Translations under genes and position numbers: made by a program | Shown: positions 51,362-54,537 of the stretch, piece by piece | Layout: each line of letters begins with the position of its first letter | Numbering within the stretch: the first letter of the stretch is position 1 | The notes under the pieces: generated by a model | Database searches by the model: none | The model's input: only the letters and a program-made list of their open reading frames with translations | What the model was told of the DNA's origin: nothing | Sequence record: MW250786 | Length of the DNA stretch: 64,000 nucleotides | Reading direction: 5' to 3' (one strand) | Source of the DNA: Escherichia phage UPEC06

Positions 51362-51572
51362 GCAAGTTGTAGAACTTAAGGTAACTTATGAGATTGACTA
51401 CACCAACGAAGATATGGCAGAGATGTTAAAAGCTAAGATGGAAAAATCCGGCTTGAGCATCGAAGAAATTTTCGAAGCTGTAGAAAAAGAACTCATCGAA
51501 GGAACTCTCGAATCGATGGAGTTGGAGTGCAAAACTCTACCTGGTTTCAGTGTCGGCGTTGTTAAACTGTAA
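51354..51572 (+). CDS. hypothetical protein
   Basis: 72-aa ORF. Confidence 0.45.
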   Translation: MTKQVVELKVTYEIDYTNEDMAEMLKAKMEKSGLSIEEIFEAVEKELIEGTLESMELECKTLPGFSVGVVKL

Positions 51573-51693
51573 TAGGAGCAAGATATATGATCGGATACAC
51601 TGGCGGTTGATGAAAGATGAAAGATGAATTCGACGGTTTCGTAGGATGGGGAGAAGGTTAATGGGAGAAGAAAATTGGGACGTTTAGAAAAAA

Positions 51694-51906
51694 TTGAAGA
51701 TTGGTTCTACGGCGGGATCTCTGGATGCTTTGAAGATGAACACCCAGACTTCTAATTATTTTCCTCTGGAGGATAATCCTCGTAATCATGATTGTAAAGA
51801 TTATGATTGTCTATGTTATTGCTGCGGTCATCGATTTGCAGGGCCAAAGAGAAGCATAATGTGTAATCTTTGTCTTAACAAGAAGAAACCTGTTGACAAT
51901 AACTGA
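51694..51906 (+). CDS. hypothetical Cys-rich small protein
   Basis: CKDYDCLCYCCGH...CNLC cluster. Confidence 0.35.
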   Translation: MKIGSTAGSLDALKMNTQTSNYFPLEDNPRNHDCKDYDCLCYCCGHRFAGPKRSIMCNLCLNKKKPVDNN

Positions 51907-52219
51907 TTAAATATGTAAGATTATTTTGTTGCCTGAGAGATTAGTCATCTTGAAGGCTGGGTGGGCAAATATATGTTGGAACCAATATACCACCGACGCG
52001 ATTTACGCTTTTGGTTGACTGCGACTAAATGGGATGCCCAGTCCATCCCTGTGTATATCGGGGAGCCGTCGAAGATCGTCTGATTAGTGATTTACGGATC
52101 ACTATAGTTTTACTACCACGACAATCTTTTACGGTGTACCCCTTGTCATGATGACGAGGTTTAAGGTTATCCTGTCGTTAAATATCCAAAACCTGTCACC
52201 ACCCACAAGAGAATTTAGC

Positions 52220-52300
52220 GCGGGTGTATCTCAACGGTCTTCTAAACCGTCGTTAATCGAGTAATTGGAGTATGAAGGTTCGAGTCCTTCCTCCCGCGCT
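52220..52300 (+). tRNA. tRNA-like element: acceptor stem and T-arm present, core non-canonical, anticodon unresolved
   Basis: T-arm gaagg-ttcgagt-ccttc; 9-bp terminal inverted repeat tagcgcggg/cccgcgcta; internal hairpin acggt-cttctaa-accgt. Confidence 0.3.
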
Positions 52301-52317
52301 AAGTTCTTTTGAATATA

Positions 52318-52392
52318 GGCCCTGTAGCTGGACGGTTCAAGCAAGCGACTCATAATCGCCAGACGGTGGTTCGATTCCACCCAGGGCCACCA
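52318..52392 (+). tRNA. tRNA-Met (anticodon CAT; could be initiator, elongator or Ile-lysidine type)
   Basis: Acceptor ggccctg/cagggcc, anticodon loop ctCATaa, T-arm ggtgg-ttcgatt-ccacc, discriminator A, encoded CCA. Confidence 0.7.
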
Positions 52393-52525
52393 TATGAAGT
52401 CGGGTCGCTCCCGATAAGTCGTCGGACTGATGTTCCCTGACTACGAGTTCCCTCAACGATAACGACGTAGATCACAGCAGAAACGGCGCACCCTATTTCA
52501 TTTCTTAATACATTTCAATAAGTTC

Positions 52526-52554
52526 TTGACATAATCCTATTATACTGCTAATAT
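52526..52554 (+). promoter_or_regulatory. Sigma70-type promoter: -35 TTGACA, 17-bp spacer, -10 TAATAT
   Basis: TTGACA at 52526-52531 and TAATAT at 52549-52554. Confidence 0.6.
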
Positions 52555-52581
52555 AGTTATATCTACTGAATTGAGGTGTTT

Positions 52582-52956
52582 ATGGCTAAAGCTGAAATCG
52601 TTACTCGAAAACGCGGTCGGCCTACTACAGAGGAAAGCATTGCAATCAATACTGAGAGAGCAATTCTTCATGCTCGTTCCGAGTTTGCAAGACTTACTCC
52701 TCAAGCAATTAAAACTCTGGAAGGTCTACTGACTTCCGGTACAGAGAAAGTTAAAGAAACTACTGCGAAGTATATTCTTGAGCAAGCTGAAAAGGCAAAC
52801 AATCTGTACACGATGGAAGATAATGAAGAGGATCTGGCAGGAGGAACTACTTCTGCAAATTCAGAAACTCATCAAGGCCCTTCTGACGCATTTAAGGATG
52901 CTATTCCATTAACTACTCAGATTCGTGAGTATAAAATGGCAGAAGGTGAAGATTAA
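52582..52956 (+). CDS. small basic-N-terminus, acidic-C-terminus protein; possible DNA-binding protein or terminase small subunit
   Basis: ATG at 52582 with a GAGG RBS; KRGRPT motif; function not established. Confidence 0.5.
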   Translation: MAKAEIVTRKRGRPTTEESIAINTERAILHARSEFARLTPQAIKTLEGLLTSGTEKVKETTAKYILEQAEKANNLYTMEDNEEDLAGGTTSANSETHQGPSDAFKDAIPLTTQIREYKMAEGED

Positions 52957-52976
52957 GGCTCGCAAGGGCCTTTATT
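52955..52976 (+). terminator. Possible terminator hairpin (GCAA tetraloop) after the 52582-52956 gene
   Basis: Stem aaggctc/gggcctt with gcaa loop followed by tttatt. Confidence 0.35.
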
Positions 52977-53210
52977 AAGAAGTTTTCTTTAAGGTAGTTC
53001 TTACTTTAGCAGAGTAAATCTTCGGCAAGTGGCGGTAACCACTTTACCGATACCTCATAGTTAGTGTTGCGAACACTGGCTACCTTAAAGAGAATTTAAC
53101 TCGTCGAATAAGGAAGATGCTGATCTCAAAGTGAGGTTACTTACCGCAAGGGGTGTGCATAGACTCCCGCTTCCGAATAGACTATGTGGCGAGATGTATT
53201 TGGGGACGTA

Positions 53211-53561
53211 ATGAATAATAAAGACCAAGGTAATGCAGGAGAGGCGTTTGCCATCTATCATTACACCTCATCAGGCCACAAGGTGTCAAAGCCGTTGTTT
53301 GAAAACTGCCCATACGACCTTATCGTTGATAAAGACGGTTGTTTGTTAAGGGTACAAGTTAAAACATCGCGTGTCAAAGCGCCAAGTGGAAGGTATGAGG
53401 TTTCTTTGAGGACCAACGGTGGTAACCGAAGTGGTATAGGAAAGAGCAAAAATATCTCAAGCTCGGAAGTAGACCTACTTTTCGTTCTTATTGAAGACGG
53501 GAGGTATTTTGAAATCCCTTGCTCAGAGGTAGATGGTCAGACTTGCGTGACCGTAGGATAA
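53211..53561 (+). CDS. restriction-endonuclease-like (PD-(D/E)XK-type) nuclease, possible homing endonuclease inside the tRNA island
   Basis: GEAF..YDLIVDKDG..RVQVKTS resembles E...PD...(E/Q)VK; ATG at 53211 with a GGGGA RBS. Confidence 0.35.
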   Translation: MNNKDQGNAGEAFAIYHYTSSGHKVSKPLFENCPYDLIVDKDGCLLRVQVKTSRVKAPSGRYEVSLRTNGGNRSGIGKSKNISSSEVDLLFVLIEDGRYFEIPCSEVDGQTCVTVG

Positions 53562-53562
53562 G

Positions 53563-53649
53563 GCATTGTTAGACCGTAGGGGTAGCGGGGCAGACTGTAA
53601 ATCTGCTGTTCATAGAACTCGGGTGGTTCGACTCCATCACAATGCACCA
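53563..53649 (+). tRNA. tRNA-Tyr (anticodon GTA), type II with a long variable arm
   Basis: Acceptor gcattgt/acaatgc, anticodon arm gcaga-ctGTAaa-tctgc, 15-nt variable arm, T-arm ggtgg-ttcgact-ccatc, discriminator A, CCA. Confidence 0.65.
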
Positions 53650-53652
53650 AAT

Positions 53653-53727
53653 TTTCCGTTAGGCTTATAGGATAAGATTCCCGCAACGTCTCGTTGTGAT
53701 ACTGGTTCGAATCCAGTACGGAAACCA
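53653..53727 (+). tRNA. tRNA-like element: perfect acceptor stem and T-arm, no canonical anticodon arm
   Basis: tttccgt/acggaaa acceptor and actgg-ttcgaat-ccagt T-arm; the middle does not fold into a standard D/anticodon arm by eye. Confidence 0.3.
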
Positions 53728-53733
53728 AATTAA

Positions 53734-53815
53734 TGTGCGGGTAACATAATTGTCACGGTGGCAAGCTGGCCTCCAAAACCAGTCGTAAGGAGTTCGACTC
53801 TTCACCTTCACGCCA
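53734..53815 (+). tRNA. tRNA-like element, possibly tRNA-Trp (CCA anticodon loop ctCCAaa) with an over-long D region
   Basis: Acceptor gtgcggg/ccttcac (1 mismatch), anticodon-like loop ctccaaa, T-loop ttcgact, discriminator G, CCA; 82 nt. Confidence 0.35.
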
Positions 53816-53819
53816 AATA

Positions 53820-53896
53820 CGGTGTATAGCGCAACTTGGTAGCGCGAATGCTTTGGGAGCATTAGGTTCGAGGTTCAAATCCTCGTACACCGACCA
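53820..53896 (+). tRNA. tRNA-Pro (anticodon TGG)
   Basis: Cloverleaf folded by eye: C1-G72, D-arm gcgc/gcgc, anticodon arm aatgc-ttTGGga-gcatt, T-arm cgagg-ttcaaat-cctcg, discriminator A, CCA. Confidence 0.75.
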
Positions 53897-53901
53897 AATA
53901 T

Positions 53902-53977
53902 GCGGGTATAGCTCAGTTGGTAGAGCTTCTGATTTCCAATCAGAATGTCACGAGTTCGAGTCTCGTTATCCGCTCCA
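53902..53977 (+). tRNA. tRNA-Gly (anticodon TCC)
   Basis: gcgggta acceptor, D-arm gctc-agttggta-gagc, anticodon arm tctga-ttTCCaa-tcaga, T-arm acgag-ttcgagt-ctcgt, discriminator U, CCA. Confidence 0.8.
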
Positions 53978-53985
53978 AACAAAAA

Positions 53986-54060
53986 TGGGGATTAGCCAAG
54001 CGGTAAGGCATTGGATTTTGATTCCAACATTCACTGGTTCGAGTCCAGTATCCCCAGCCA
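53986..54060 (+). tRNA. tRNA-Gln (anticodon TTG)
   Basis: U1-A72 acceptor tggggat/atcccca, anticodon arm ttgga-ttTTGat-tccaa, T-arm actgg-ttcgagt-ccagt, discriminator G, CCA. Confidence 0.75.
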
Positions 54061-54107
54061 ATTTACCCTCATATAATAACAATAATATAATCTCCTCTCC
54101 TTCGCCT

Positions 54108-54137
54108 CAGCCTCCCTCATTTGGGAGGCTTTTTTAT
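54108..54137 (+). terminator. Intrinsic terminator after the tRNA island
   Basis: Hairpin cagcctccc-tcattt-gggaggct followed by ttttttattt. Confidence 0.7.
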
Positions 54138-54177
54138 TTGTGATTTCGGTGATAAAATATCCAAAAGGAGGATTTAT

Positions 54178-54537
54178 ATGTTACCCGCTAAAAAATATTT
54201 CATTTACGCAATGATCGGTGTTGCGTTATTTACGTCTGGAAAACTGTATCTCGGACACGTCGAGTCTGTTGGATATGACAAAGGCTACGATGTTGCAAAC
54301 ACGGCTTGGATAAAGAAAGCTACTGAGTACAAAGGAAAGCTTGACTCTACATTGGAAGAGAATAAGAGATTGAATGAAGAACTTTCTTATGCAAATGCAA
54401 AACGGATCATCGCTGAGGAAAAATTACGTGATGAAGTAGAGGCAATGAGAATCGACTATGCAAAATCTAAAAAGGGGCAAGAAATCTTTATGGATGATGA
54501 GATAGTTGATATCTATAACAAATCCCTGGGGGAATGA
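54178..54537 (+). CDS. i-spanin (Rz-like): N-terminal TM helix plus periplasmic coiled coil
   Basis: ATG at 54178 with an AAGGAGG RBS; IYAMIGVALFTSG TM; charged helical remainder; overlaps the next gene. Confidence 0.55.
   Translation: MLPAKKYFIYAMIGVALFTSGKLYLGHVESVGYDKGYDVANTAWIKKATEYKGKLDSTLEENKRLNEELSYANAKRIIAEEKLRDEVEAMRIDYAKSKKGQEIFMDDEIVDIYNKSLGE

Follow-up and report, generated by a model that had tools for sequence, protein, structure and literature searches.

A putative arginine tRNA with a rearranged D-arm in the small-RNA island of Escherichia phage UPEC06

Introduction

Circularly permuted tRNA genes, as found in Cyanidioschyzon merolae and some archaea, place the 3' half of the molecule first, and a circular intermediate restores the normal tRNA. 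Other described departures from the cloverleaf include the D-armless mitochondrial tRNAs (mt-tRNAs), such as metazoan mt-tRNA-Ser(AGY/UCU), which have lost the D-loop and the contacts of G18 and G19 and have a flexible shape, and tRNA-Sec and the allo-tRNAs, which occur in 8/5, 8/4 and 9/3 forms with D-stems of 6 base-pairs (bp) (PMC7609411). The present work concerns a tRNA island of Escherichia phage UPEC06 (sequence record MW250786), lying within a stretch of 64,000 nucleotides (nt) that was analysed as a whole and is referred to as the window, and in particular element A of that island, at 52220-52298. Element A is probably a working gene of a class of rearranged arginine tRNAs confined to phages, and one part of an island that reads as two operons.

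By megablast, the closest relatives of 51700-54200 are unclassified Vequintavirinae, the E. coli myophages vB_EcoM-LTH01 (LTH01), A7_1, A73, W70 and A5-4, at 95-97% identity, and the genes directly downstream of the island encode a spanin and the large terminase. These relatives and downstream genes indicate that the region is the tRNA cluster of a virulent phage of approximately 140 kb.

Structure of element A and its family

tRNA genes were called with ARAGORN at its default, relaxed and mitochondrial settings and with the Rfam 15 tRNA model RF00005; all features of the island described here lie on the + strand. A preliminary description of the island had listed five tRNAs and three further tRNA-like elements with non-canonical cores, and five is the number of standard cloverleafs that ARAGORN returned by default among those eight. 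The three extra elements are nevertheless real: element A (52220-52298) passes the Rfam model, and elements B (53654-53727) and C (53735-53815) are detected by ARAGORN in its relaxed and mitochondrial modes, respectively.

Element A, which we describe as a tRNA-Arg(UCU) with a rearranged D-arm, is absent from the default ARAGORN output. It scores 35.8 bits with the Rfam model, above the gathering score of 29 bits, in an alignment that omits the D-arm, and 83 bits with our own covariance model. Its acceptor stem, GCGGGUG/CUCCCGC, consists of six pairs and a U6.U67 mismatch, and is followed by U8 and A9, by UCUC (one strand of the D-stem), by A, and by the anticodon arm ACGGU-CUUCUAA-ACCGU. On the 3' side of that arm come a linker, CGUUAAUC, the other D-stem strand, GAGU, a D-loop-like sequence, AAUUGGAGUA, and U. 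The T arm is GAAGG-UUCGAGU-CCUUC and the discriminator is G73; CCA is not encoded, GCTAAG being found instead. A 7-bp acceptor, a 5-bp anticodon stem and a 7-nt loop with U33 and a purine at 37 are all as in a cloverleaf, and so is the T arm with its GTTCRA loop, G53, T54, T55 and C56 being invariant across the family. What is lacking is a D-arm between positions 9 and 26, as only 5 nt separate A9 from the anticodon stem.

Throughout the family, the pairing partner of nucleotides 10-13 lies 3' of the anticodon arm, and AANNGGA, the signature of the D-loop, occupies the position of the variable loop. Among core members the sequence GUAUCUCA ... CUUCUAA ... GAGUAANNGGA is invariant, the CUC at 11-13 being complementary to the GAG just 5' of AANNGGA. 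A search anchored on the GGAUA-type D-loop, the anticodon loop and the T loop gave 19 more divergent members, in which the two strands of the D-stem co-vary (TCTC/GAGT, ACTC/GAGT, TACC/GGTT, TCCC/GGGT and TCGA/TCGT, and further TCGG/CCGT, TTCC/GGAT, TGCC/AGCT and ATGG/GCAT). In an alignment of 36 sequences, pair 11-44 is CG in 27, GC in 5, AU in 2 and UA in 2, and pair 12-43 is UA in 23, CG in 10 and GC in 3, with a conserved U.U at the outer position of the stem. Pairing in 36/36 at both positions, with several types of pair, indicates that the rearranged D-stem exists and that it encloses the anticodon arm. The linker between the anticodon arm and the second D-stem strand varies from 4 to 10 nt across the class, and the D-loop sequence, which follows the 3' D-stem strand, reaches the T arm through 3-7 nt ending in U.

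If GAGU is numbered as 10-13 and UCUC as 22-25, the connections 13 to 14 and 25 to 26 to 27 would be kept, together with G10-C25, A26, A14, R15, G18, G19, A20, A21 and U48. The connections altered on this numbering would be 9 to 22, 43 through the linker to 10, and 21 to 48. Compared with a textbook tRNA, the block formed by the 5' strand of the D-stem and the D-loop is exchanged with the block formed by the 3' strand of the D-stem and the anticodon arm. Judged by the known tertiary map of tRNA, the unchanged helices and the contacts of U8, A14, R15, G18, G19 and U48 could still build an L-shape.

A 91-nt query containing element A matched 267 phage records at 77-96% identity over approximately 70 nt. 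These belong to Felixounavirus, Asteriusvirus (121Q), T5-like Klebsiella phages, Phapecoctavirus, Mydovirus-like Klebsiella phages and Streptomyces phages, and the homologs in them are unannotated or are labelled tRNA-Leu, tRNA-OTHER, tRNA-TERM or hypothetical proteins. Pattern scans of IMG/VR gave 67 loci which, combined with the phage records, made up 51 distinct sequences in three length variants; the class in total has more than 70 distinct sequences. The core pattern had no match in 100,044 bacterial and archaeal genomes (one per species), compared with the 67 loci in IMG/VR, and a broader pattern had 73 matches in the same genomes, none of them structurally valid, against 20 valid ones in the viral collection. 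In the scans made, the class thus appears to be found only in phages. No description of it was found in Rfam 15 or in the open-access literature searched, and there may be an earlier one elsewhere.

When 48 distinct members were aligned, 94% of cells were paired (98.5% in the acceptor stem), compared with approximately 40-50% in controls with the register slid. Double, compensatory changes were found at 15 of the 21 pairs, and none of 500 shuffles reached the observed covariation score. The acceptor, anticodon and T stems vary freely yet stay paired, all five anticodon-stem pairs covary, and once the 19 divergent members are included covariation is seen in all four helices. Members score 57-86 bits with our own covariance model, canonical tRNAs not more than 38 bits. 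This pattern bears on the idea that elements A, B and C are decaying pseudogenes of a larger ancestral tRNA cluster, their acceptor and T arms persisting as the decay is recent. That all three are rejected by default ARAGORN, and that the window copy of element A has an acceptor mismatch and no CCA, would suit such an origin. The relatives of element A, however, keep four helices by means of many compensatory changes across unrelated phage families, the anticodons of the class all stay arginine, and the core is 85-95% identical across FelixO1-like, T5-like, 121Q-like and Streptomyces phages, which would not be expected of pseudogenes. With the evidence from elements B and C given below, we regard decay as highly improbable.

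Three other interpretations of element A were dropped. A model in which the second GAG pairs with CUC fails in family variant 2, which has GGAU there; the variable-arm hairpin UAAUC/GAGUA drawn by ARAGORN is broken by a substitution in FelixO1; and the tRNA-Leu(UAA) of the 121Q annotation fails because the 7-nt loop places UCU at 34-36 in all members.

Arginine identity and proposed function

Fifty of the 51 core members have CUUCUAA or CUUCUAC as their anticodon loop, and the remaining one has UUCCUAA (anticodon CCU). A search of 50 tRNA-rich loci with the covariance model gave rearranged tRNAs with ACG, UCG and CCU, often as a second copy in one phage, so that every anticodon found (UCU, CCU, ACG, UCG) codes for arginine. 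The bacterial arginine identity set comprises A20, C35, U/G36 and A/G73 (PMC9976931). It is fully present here: G18, G19 and A20 are invariant, C35 occurs in every anticodon, position 36 is U or G, and N73 is G in the window copy and a purine in 43 of the 51 core members. Most family members encode CCA.

Members lie inside tRNA clusters at ordinary tRNA spacing, and a canonical tRNA-Arg(UCU) is also present in only one of the 22 member loci that have at least 15 tRNAs. FelixO1, for example, has 25 tRNAs by ARAGORN, of which the sole arginine one is ACG, and one unannotated rearranged member. In PVP-SE1 a canonical tRNA-Arg(UCU) (locus L062, 392-466) is flanked by tRNA-Leu(UAA) and tRNA-Cys, and in Mydo and a Klebsiella phage that same slot is occupied by the rearranged form; the acceptor and T arms of the PVP-SE1 tRNA are nearly identical to those of FelixO1-type members. 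The shared slot and the near-matching arms point to descent of the rearranged class from a canonical phage tRNA-Arg, which it would have replaced functionally. In 41 open reading frames (ORFs) of the window AGA is used at 6.4 and AGG at 4.8 per 1000 codons, approximately 3-4 times the usual E. coli values.

These findings also bear on a second alternative, that the rearranged RNAs are tRNA mimics which do not decode, acting as decoys against a host defence nuclease directed at tRNA or as regulators of arginyl-tRNA synthetase (ArgRS) or another tRNA-binding protein, with the arginine loop as bait. A single amino-acid identity would suit one protein partner too. Element B cannot decode yet is conserved, so tRNA-shaped RNAs of that kind do exist in the island, and the relatives of rnaD and rnaC are stable phage RNAs adjacent to tRNAs with unknown, non-decoding roles (PMC3014915). 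A decoy, however, has no need of four arginine anticodons or of two isoacceptor-like copies per phage, and need neither replace a canonical tRNA-Arg(UCU) at the same locus nor be the sole UCU gene among the 20-28 tRNAs of a cluster; the complete set of ArgRS identity nucleotides and the CCA of most members suit charging. Mimicry is therefore considered unlikely.

The preferred reading, a working arginine tRNA, starts from what is observed: a secondary structure backed by covariation, anticodons for arginine only, a distribution in phages only, the filling of a tRNA slot, and synteny. Element A would be co-transcribed with the neighbouring tRNAs and its 5' end would be cut by RNase P. Its 3' end would be trimmed, and CCA added, by host enzymes, the addition being proposed because the window copy encodes no CCA. 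Host ArgRS would then charge it by way of A20, C35, U36 and G73, and the charged tRNA would decode AGA (and AGG). It has been missed by standard annotation because its D-arm is wired in a different order from that of textbook tRNAs. As to why such a form should exist, the rearranged D-arm might make arginine decoding private to the phage, by escaping a nuclease, a modification enzyme or a depletion aimed at the body of canonical tRNA-Arg; the attacker could be an anti-phage defence of the host or a weapon with which the phage itself shuts off the host, and ArgRS would go on charging the rearranged tRNA. A design limited to phages and to arginine and covering all the arginine isoacceptor types would be explained in this way, and we offer the idea as a doubtful suggestion only.

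Several points weigh against the reading of element A as a working tRNA-Arg. The window copy could be less fit than the family norm, because of its U6.U67 acceptor mismatch and lack of an encoded CCA. The rearranged D-stem has only three Watson-Crick pairs and the conserved U.U, and its covariation depends on the 19 divergent sequences, since the stem is invariant in the core family. Within the transposed segment RNAalifold favours another hairpin of 3 bp (YCG/YGG), which is conceivable for the core family; the changes relevant to that hairpin are all of the wobble-compatible kind, and it leaves the covariation of the D-stem in 36 sequences unexplained. The single-sequence fold of element A is no better than that of shuffles (z -1.08), and single-sequence folding of elements A and C is uninformative. 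The restriction to arginine is a biased result, because the searches for other anticodons were seeded with arginine anticodon loops; the model search of 50 loci is less biased, though not free of bias. The loci that show slot-filling are not independent, since many near-identical FelixO1-type phages are among them. The 3-D fold, expression, processing, charging and decoding of class members we infer from sequence.

In some uncultivated phages two rearranged tRNA-Arg genes occur, each with an arginine anticodon of its own (L038, 12999-13077 and 13348-13426; further two-copy loci are L053 2689-2763, L088 1952-2028, L093 8421-8494 and L028 10185-10274). The combinations are CCU with UCU, ACG with UCU, and UCG with UCU, and the ACG copy in L028 has an additional hairpin 3' of the transposed D-loop. 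In FelixO1 (NC_005282.1, 25947-26025; L005), Roth50 and 7t3 (L007 and L008, 1199-1280) an ORF directly follows the rearranged tRNA-Arg, encoding an HNH endonuclease in the first two and a hypothetical protein in 7t3; the annotated start of the FelixO1 HNH gene overlaps the tRNA. Short coding sequences annotated as hypothetical proteins lie on or beside the rearranged tRNA-Arg and the tRNA-Trp-like element in Mydo (L063, 330-419) and a Klebsiella phage (L331, 2029-2157), and are probably annotation artefacts due to the missed RNA genes.

Elements B and C

Element B (53654-53727) was called 'Arg-tct' by relaxed ARAGORN and was examined by folding. It has an acceptor stem, a small D hairpin (CUUA-UAGGA-UAAG), a T arm, A73 and an encoded CCA, and in place of an anticodon arm there is a closed hairpin of 7 bp with 3 nt in its loop (CGCAACG-UCU-CGUUGUG). 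The corresponding hairpin is CACAACG-UAU-CGUUGUG in A7_1, CACAA-CUUA-UUGUG in the Phapecoctavirus Mt1B1_P17 (5 bp and a 4-nt loop, with no CCA), and GUACUU-AAC-AAGUAU in phiEB49. In all of these the acceptor stem, small D hairpin and T arm are kept and the hairpin is replaced wholesale. As the anticodon loop is closed, element B cannot decode; it is a conserved RNA in the shape of a tRNA. Its loop does vary in length and sequence between phages, one homolog has no CCA, and relatives have lost or replaced it (A5-4 has an rnaD-like RNA there), as decay to a pseudogene would predict; what is seen instead of erosion is the exchange of one perfect hairpin for another.

Element C (53735-53815) was found by the mitochondrial mode of ARAGORN only, as Trp-cca, and is a non-canonical tRNA-Trp(CCA)-like gene. 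Its acceptor, GUGCGGG(U)/(A)CCUUCAC, has a conserved C4.U69 mismatch and is readable as 8/4 or 7/5. There follow an insert, ACAUAA, a 6-bp D hairpin with a triloop (UUGUCA-CGG-UGGCAA), the anticodon loop CUCCAAA, G73 and CCA. Homologs occur in Vequintavirinae only, in PVP-SE1 (annotated tRNA-Trp) and in the Mydovirus group, and have in common the CUCCAAA loop, G73-CCA, C4.U69, the insert ACWUAA and a D hairpin of 6 bp capped by a YGG triloop. Covariation in the stem of this hairpin (UUGUCA/UGGCAA, UUGCAG/CUGCAA, UUGCUC/GAGCAA) is again contrary to decay, since the change is between genera; it rests on three sequences because the IMG/VR scan returned three loci only. ARAGORN default finds no canonical tRNA-Trp in the window, and in the stretch of the PVP-SE1 cluster examined the homolog is the sole annotated tRNA-Trp. 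Element C is accordingly best taken as the likely tRNA-Trp of the subfamily, on thinner evidence (three sequences) than that for element A.

The preliminary description had offered degenerate pseudogenes, unusual functional tRNAs or misfolding as explanations of the three elements. The second is supported for elements A and C, because of covariation, conserved anticodon identity and slot-filling in tRNA clusters; none of the three covers element B.

Canonical tRNAs and the endonuclease cassette

The five tRNAs recognised earlier (Met, Tyr, Pro, Gly and Gln) are exactly those returned by ARAGORN default, and in all five CCA is encoded after the discriminator base. With the Rfam tRNA model the tRNA with anticodon CAU, called Met (52318-52392), scores 60.3 bits, tRNA-Pro(UGG) (53820-53896) 67.6, tRNA-Gly(UCC) (53902-53977) 72.4 and tRNA-Gln(UUG) (53986-54060) 65.8, ie all four lie at 60-72 bits. 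The 87-nt tRNA-Tyr(GUA) (53563-53649), an allele linked to an endonuclease gene, has a cloverleaf as its minimum free energy (MFE) structure and receives only a 32-bit tRNA-Sec match, and so is less canonical than the preliminary description supposed. The tRNA(CAU) has the anticodon arm AGCGA-CUCAUAA-UCGCC and the acceptor strand GGCCCUG. Its arms resemble, we presume, those of E. coli tRNA-Ile2, the lysidine-containing reader of AUA, more than those of elongator tRNA-Met, and T4 also encodes a tRNA of the tRNA-Ile2 type. The tRNA(CAU) could possibly be an AUA-reading tRNA-Ile2.

The ORF at 53211-53561 (116 amino acids) ends one base before tRNA-Tyr. It had been described as PD-(D/E)XK-like, and this identity is borne out by a match to PF11645 (PDDEXK_5) of 77.3 bits (E 1.5e-21; curated cut-off 26.1 bits); what had not been recognised is a mobile homing endonuclease, of the I-Ssp6803I type, travelling with a tRNA-Tyr allele. 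Residues 4-100 match I-Ssp6803I itself (PDB 2OST, E 3e-8), with YDLIVD...VQVK aligned to YDLVFD...VQVK. No group I intron RNA was found around the ORF with Rfam. The endonuclease gene is missing from the four closest relatives examined. In A7_1, A73 and A5-4 it is absent from a locus that is otherwise 95-98% identical, and the same upstream DNA leads straight into an 82-nt tRNA-Tyr beginning GGGGACGUGGCAGAG (GGGGACGTGGCAGAG...). In the window, by comparison, an 8-nt remnant of the 5' end of that endonuclease-free tRNA-Tyr, GGGGACGT (53202-53209), forms the left junction of the cassette and is followed by the endonuclease ORF and then by the different, 87-nt tRNA-Tyr. LTH01 has kept the 87-nt allele and has lost 53209-53495 by deletion between GACG repeats, leaving a 66-nt remnant of the endonuclease. 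A Klebsiella phage has a homolog of 65% identity in the same place, abutting a 90-nt tRNA-Tyr; Mydo has none and has an 84-nt tRNA-Tyr there. A homolog is present in 65 of the 50,697 phage records, with a scatter over phages of Vibrio, Mycobacterium, Bacillus, Pseudomonas and enterobacteria.

Presence and absence among relatives, sporadic spread and linkage to tRNA-Tyr together amount to the behaviour of a free-standing homing endonuclease, and the ORF appears to be a mobile one that arrived with a divergent tRNA-Tyr allele. It might instead belong to the island as a resident nuclease, one that processes RNA or degrades host DNA, for example. The ORF is small, and is free-standing and not intron-encoded as I-Ssp6803I is; the target site of its product is predicted only; and PHROG gives the family as of unknown function. 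Counting against the mobile reading likewise, the endonuclease-free tRNA-Tyr gene is its probable target by position only. A resident gene, on the other hand, would hardly be absent from A7_1, A73 and A5-4 and internally deleted in LTH01, nor have homologs so scattered, nor recur beside a longer tRNA-Tyr in a Klebsiella phage and be lacking in the related Mydo, and the closest protein of solved structure has been proven to be a homing endonuclease, with a tRNA gene as its target. Residence is for these reasons judged quite unlikely. Kinship with the trna.1 and trna.2 ORFs of T2L was considered and dropped, no similarity being found.

RF00005 gives no hit for the 87-nt tRNA-Tyr, compared with 55-58 bits for the endonuclease-free allele (eg A7_1, L002 2996-3077). 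A related allele in Mt1B1_P17 (L064, 433-517) is flagged tRNA-Pseudo-GTA in RefSeq. The endonuclease-linked allele is either unusual but functional or an incoming copy of lower quality. Judging from this cassette and from the HNH genes beside rearranged tRNA-Arg genes, several families of homing endonuclease seem to find a hot spot in tRNA clusters.

Structured RNAs and layout of the island

The stretch 51907-52217 had been described as free of ORFs and of any assignment. It does contain no ORF of more than 40 amino acids; the predicted promoter P1 lies at its start, and within it is a structured RNA of T-even type, R1 (52054-52194), with 80-87% identity to 776 phage records, mostly of Tequatrovirus. 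R1 has a 5' domain of approximately 85 nt and a 3' domain of approximately 45 nt, and in T4 and hundreds of T-even phages its homolog lies unannotated between rIII and 30.9. Compensatory changes were seen in R1 (GGGG/CCCC to GAGG/CCTC, TAGTGAT/ATCACTA to TAATGAT/ATCATTA, and GAACTGTC/GACAGTT to GAATTGTC/GACAATT). The sequence upstream of it, 51930-52053, is specific to the clade. In A73 (L003, approximately 1800-1815, against window 52147-52206) the 3' domain is missing, and some T-even phages have insertions of 50-150 nt between the two domains; R1 is therefore modular, its 5' and 3' domains being separated by a variable insert.

A homolog of rnaD (species II RNA) occupies 52393-52493, starting at the base after the CCA of tRNA(CAU). 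Identity to the rnaD annotated in T2L and RB9 is 89-91% over its 5' 47 nt and 96-100% over its 3' 22-25 nt; the central hairpin varies, and covariation is seen in the 5' hairpin. As a query it matched 813 phage records. In RB9 and T2L, rnaD begins 1-2 nt after tRNA-Arg. In T4, the one phage for which this is known, rnaD accumulates as a stable small RNA late in infection (PMC9697503), and its function is unknown (PMC3014915, PMC9697503). No homolog of rnaC (species I) was found for R1, for the Y RNA described below or for any other part of the island. In A5-4 (L004, 2945-3075) a second, divergent rnaD-like RNA stands right after tRNA-Tyr, in the place of the element B of the window and of A7_1, so that small-RNA modules have been swapped as cassettes between tRNA 3' ends.

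The Y RNA (52980-53099) is a four-way junction of approximately 120 nt with an MFE of -42.2 kcal/mol (z -6.4). Homologs of 75-92% identity were found in 178 records of Vequintavirus, Phapecoctavirus, Justusliebigvirus (phi92) and T5-like Tequintavirus, a scan of IMG/VR for further ones giving one locus; the consensus has 38 pairs, four of them covarying, and in several phage groups the RNA lies flush with neighbouring tRNAs. The motif AAGAGAAUUUA recurs at 52206-52216 and 53090-53100 (the 3' edges of R1 and Y), after the T4 copy of R1 (L164, approximately 2690, upstream of gene 30.9) and at approximately 415-425 of L064. In the Y RNA it is the 3' strand of the closing helix, and it may be a processing or boundary signal.

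A scan of the spacers with Rfam gave nothing for R1, the rnaD-like RNA or Y, though by homology these spacers are RNA genes all the same. Over 51500-54500, at E values up to 10, nothing was returned for those three or for element B, and sub-threshold YrlA and plastid hits were dismissed as artefacts derived from tRNA.

The island likely consists of two small-RNA operons on the same strand, framed by two predicted promoters and a terminator. P1 (51893-51921, TTGACA-17-TAAGAT) and P2 (52526-52554, TTGACA-17-TAATAT with a TG extension) are sigma-70-like, each with 10 of 12 consensus matches, and the predicted intrinsic terminator (54109-54140) has an 8-bp stem with six G-C pairs followed by TTTTTATTTG. 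From P1, which heads the first operon, the order would be R1, element A, tRNA(CAU) and the rnaD-like RNA. From P2 it would be a 124-amino-acid ORF, the Y RNA, the endonuclease gene, tRNA-Tyr, elements B and C, and tRNA-Pro, -Gly and -Gln, with the terminator closing this tRNA operon. The ORF (52582-52956; phrog_3330, E 3e-29) is conserved in position across the subfamily, and its homologs in relatives are annotated as hypothetical proteins. The approximately 100 nt at 53100-53200, between the Y RNA and the tRNA-Tyr remnant, are conserved in the closest relatives only and could contain a processing site or a promoter of the tRNA array. A7_1 (L002, 3162-3665), A73 (L003) and A5-4 (L004) have a 70-amino-acid ORF and the tRNA order Gly-Gln-Pro, with a 99-nt spacer between tRNA-Gly and tRNA-Gln, and are without element C.

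Were the rearranged tRNA-Arg charged and used, its core topology would lie outside the catalogue of non-canonical tRNAs (tRNA-Sec, tRNA-Pyl, allo-tRNAs and armless mitochondrial tRNAs). The ribosomes that it worked on would be ordinary bacterial ones, and it would test connectivity of the cloverleaf against three-dimensional contacts as what matters to RNase P, ArgRS, EF-Tu and the ribosome. The tRNA complements of phages, including FelixO1, are undercounted at the AGA codon because the rearranged genes are unannotated or mislabelled. The restriction to arginine and to phages hints at a possible tie to phage-host conflicts over tRNA. The fifty-year-old orphan RNA of T4, rnaD, is found outside the T-even phages as well, and at least two further conserved structured RNAs share the tRNA clusters, giving comparative material on the roles of such RNAs.

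Comparison with known systems

Apart from element A, the island holds an rnaD homolog and a homing-endonuclease cassette, both of known kinds, and uncharacterised conserved RNAs. Like T-even rnaD, the RNA in the window has both ends, a covarying 5' hairpin and a start right after a tRNA 3' end; it differs in following tRNA(CAU) and not tRNA-Arg, in its shorter and unrelated central hairpin, and in belonging to a phage that is not T-even. The endonuclease shares with I-Ssp6803I, of the Synechocystis tRNA-fMet intron, PF11645, the D...QVK motif and association with a tRNA gene. Unlike that enzyme its gene is free-standing, encodes 116 and not 151 amino acids, lies beside and not inside tRNA-Tyr, and is linked to a divergent copy of it.

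Element C can be drawn with 8 bp in the acceptor and 4 bp in the T stem, and its D-stem, of 6 bp, carries a very small loop, as in tRNA-Sec and the allo-tRNAs. Unlike them it has the anticodon CCA, G73, a short variable loop and an insert of 6-7 nt before the D hairpin, with no long variable arm or Ser/Sec features, and it scores only 19 bits with the Rfam tRNA-Sec model.

The class to which element A belongs departs from textbook segment order, as do circularly permuted tRNA genes. In the phage class, however, both ends are normal and an internal block is exchanged; simple processing would not bring back the canonical order, and the mature phage RNA should therefore retain the rearranged one. 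D-armless mt-tRNA-Ser is likewise three-armed, with extra pairs beside the anticodon stem formed by nucleotides after 8-9, and the UCU anticodon common to both is a coincidence. The phage class, however, keeps the D-loop signature A14 R15 .. G18 G19 A20 .. A21, at the position of the variable loop, has a canonical T loop, and is carried by viruses whose bacterial hosts have standard translation; since AANNGGA and GTTCRA are both invariant, element A is not classed with the D-armless mitochondrial type. The canonical tRNA-Arg(UCU), eg that of PVP-SE1, shares with the class the CUUCUAA loop, the ArgRS identity nucleotides, the slot and, in most members, CCA. It differs in the order of the core, the D-stem of the class enclosing the anticodon arm and the D-loop lying between D-stem and T arm, and owing to this changed order the secondary structure is a three-way junction instead of a four-way cloverleaf. 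Element A would thus work like a tRNA-Arg while failing the feature that defines the cloverleaf, a D-arm between positions 9 and 26.

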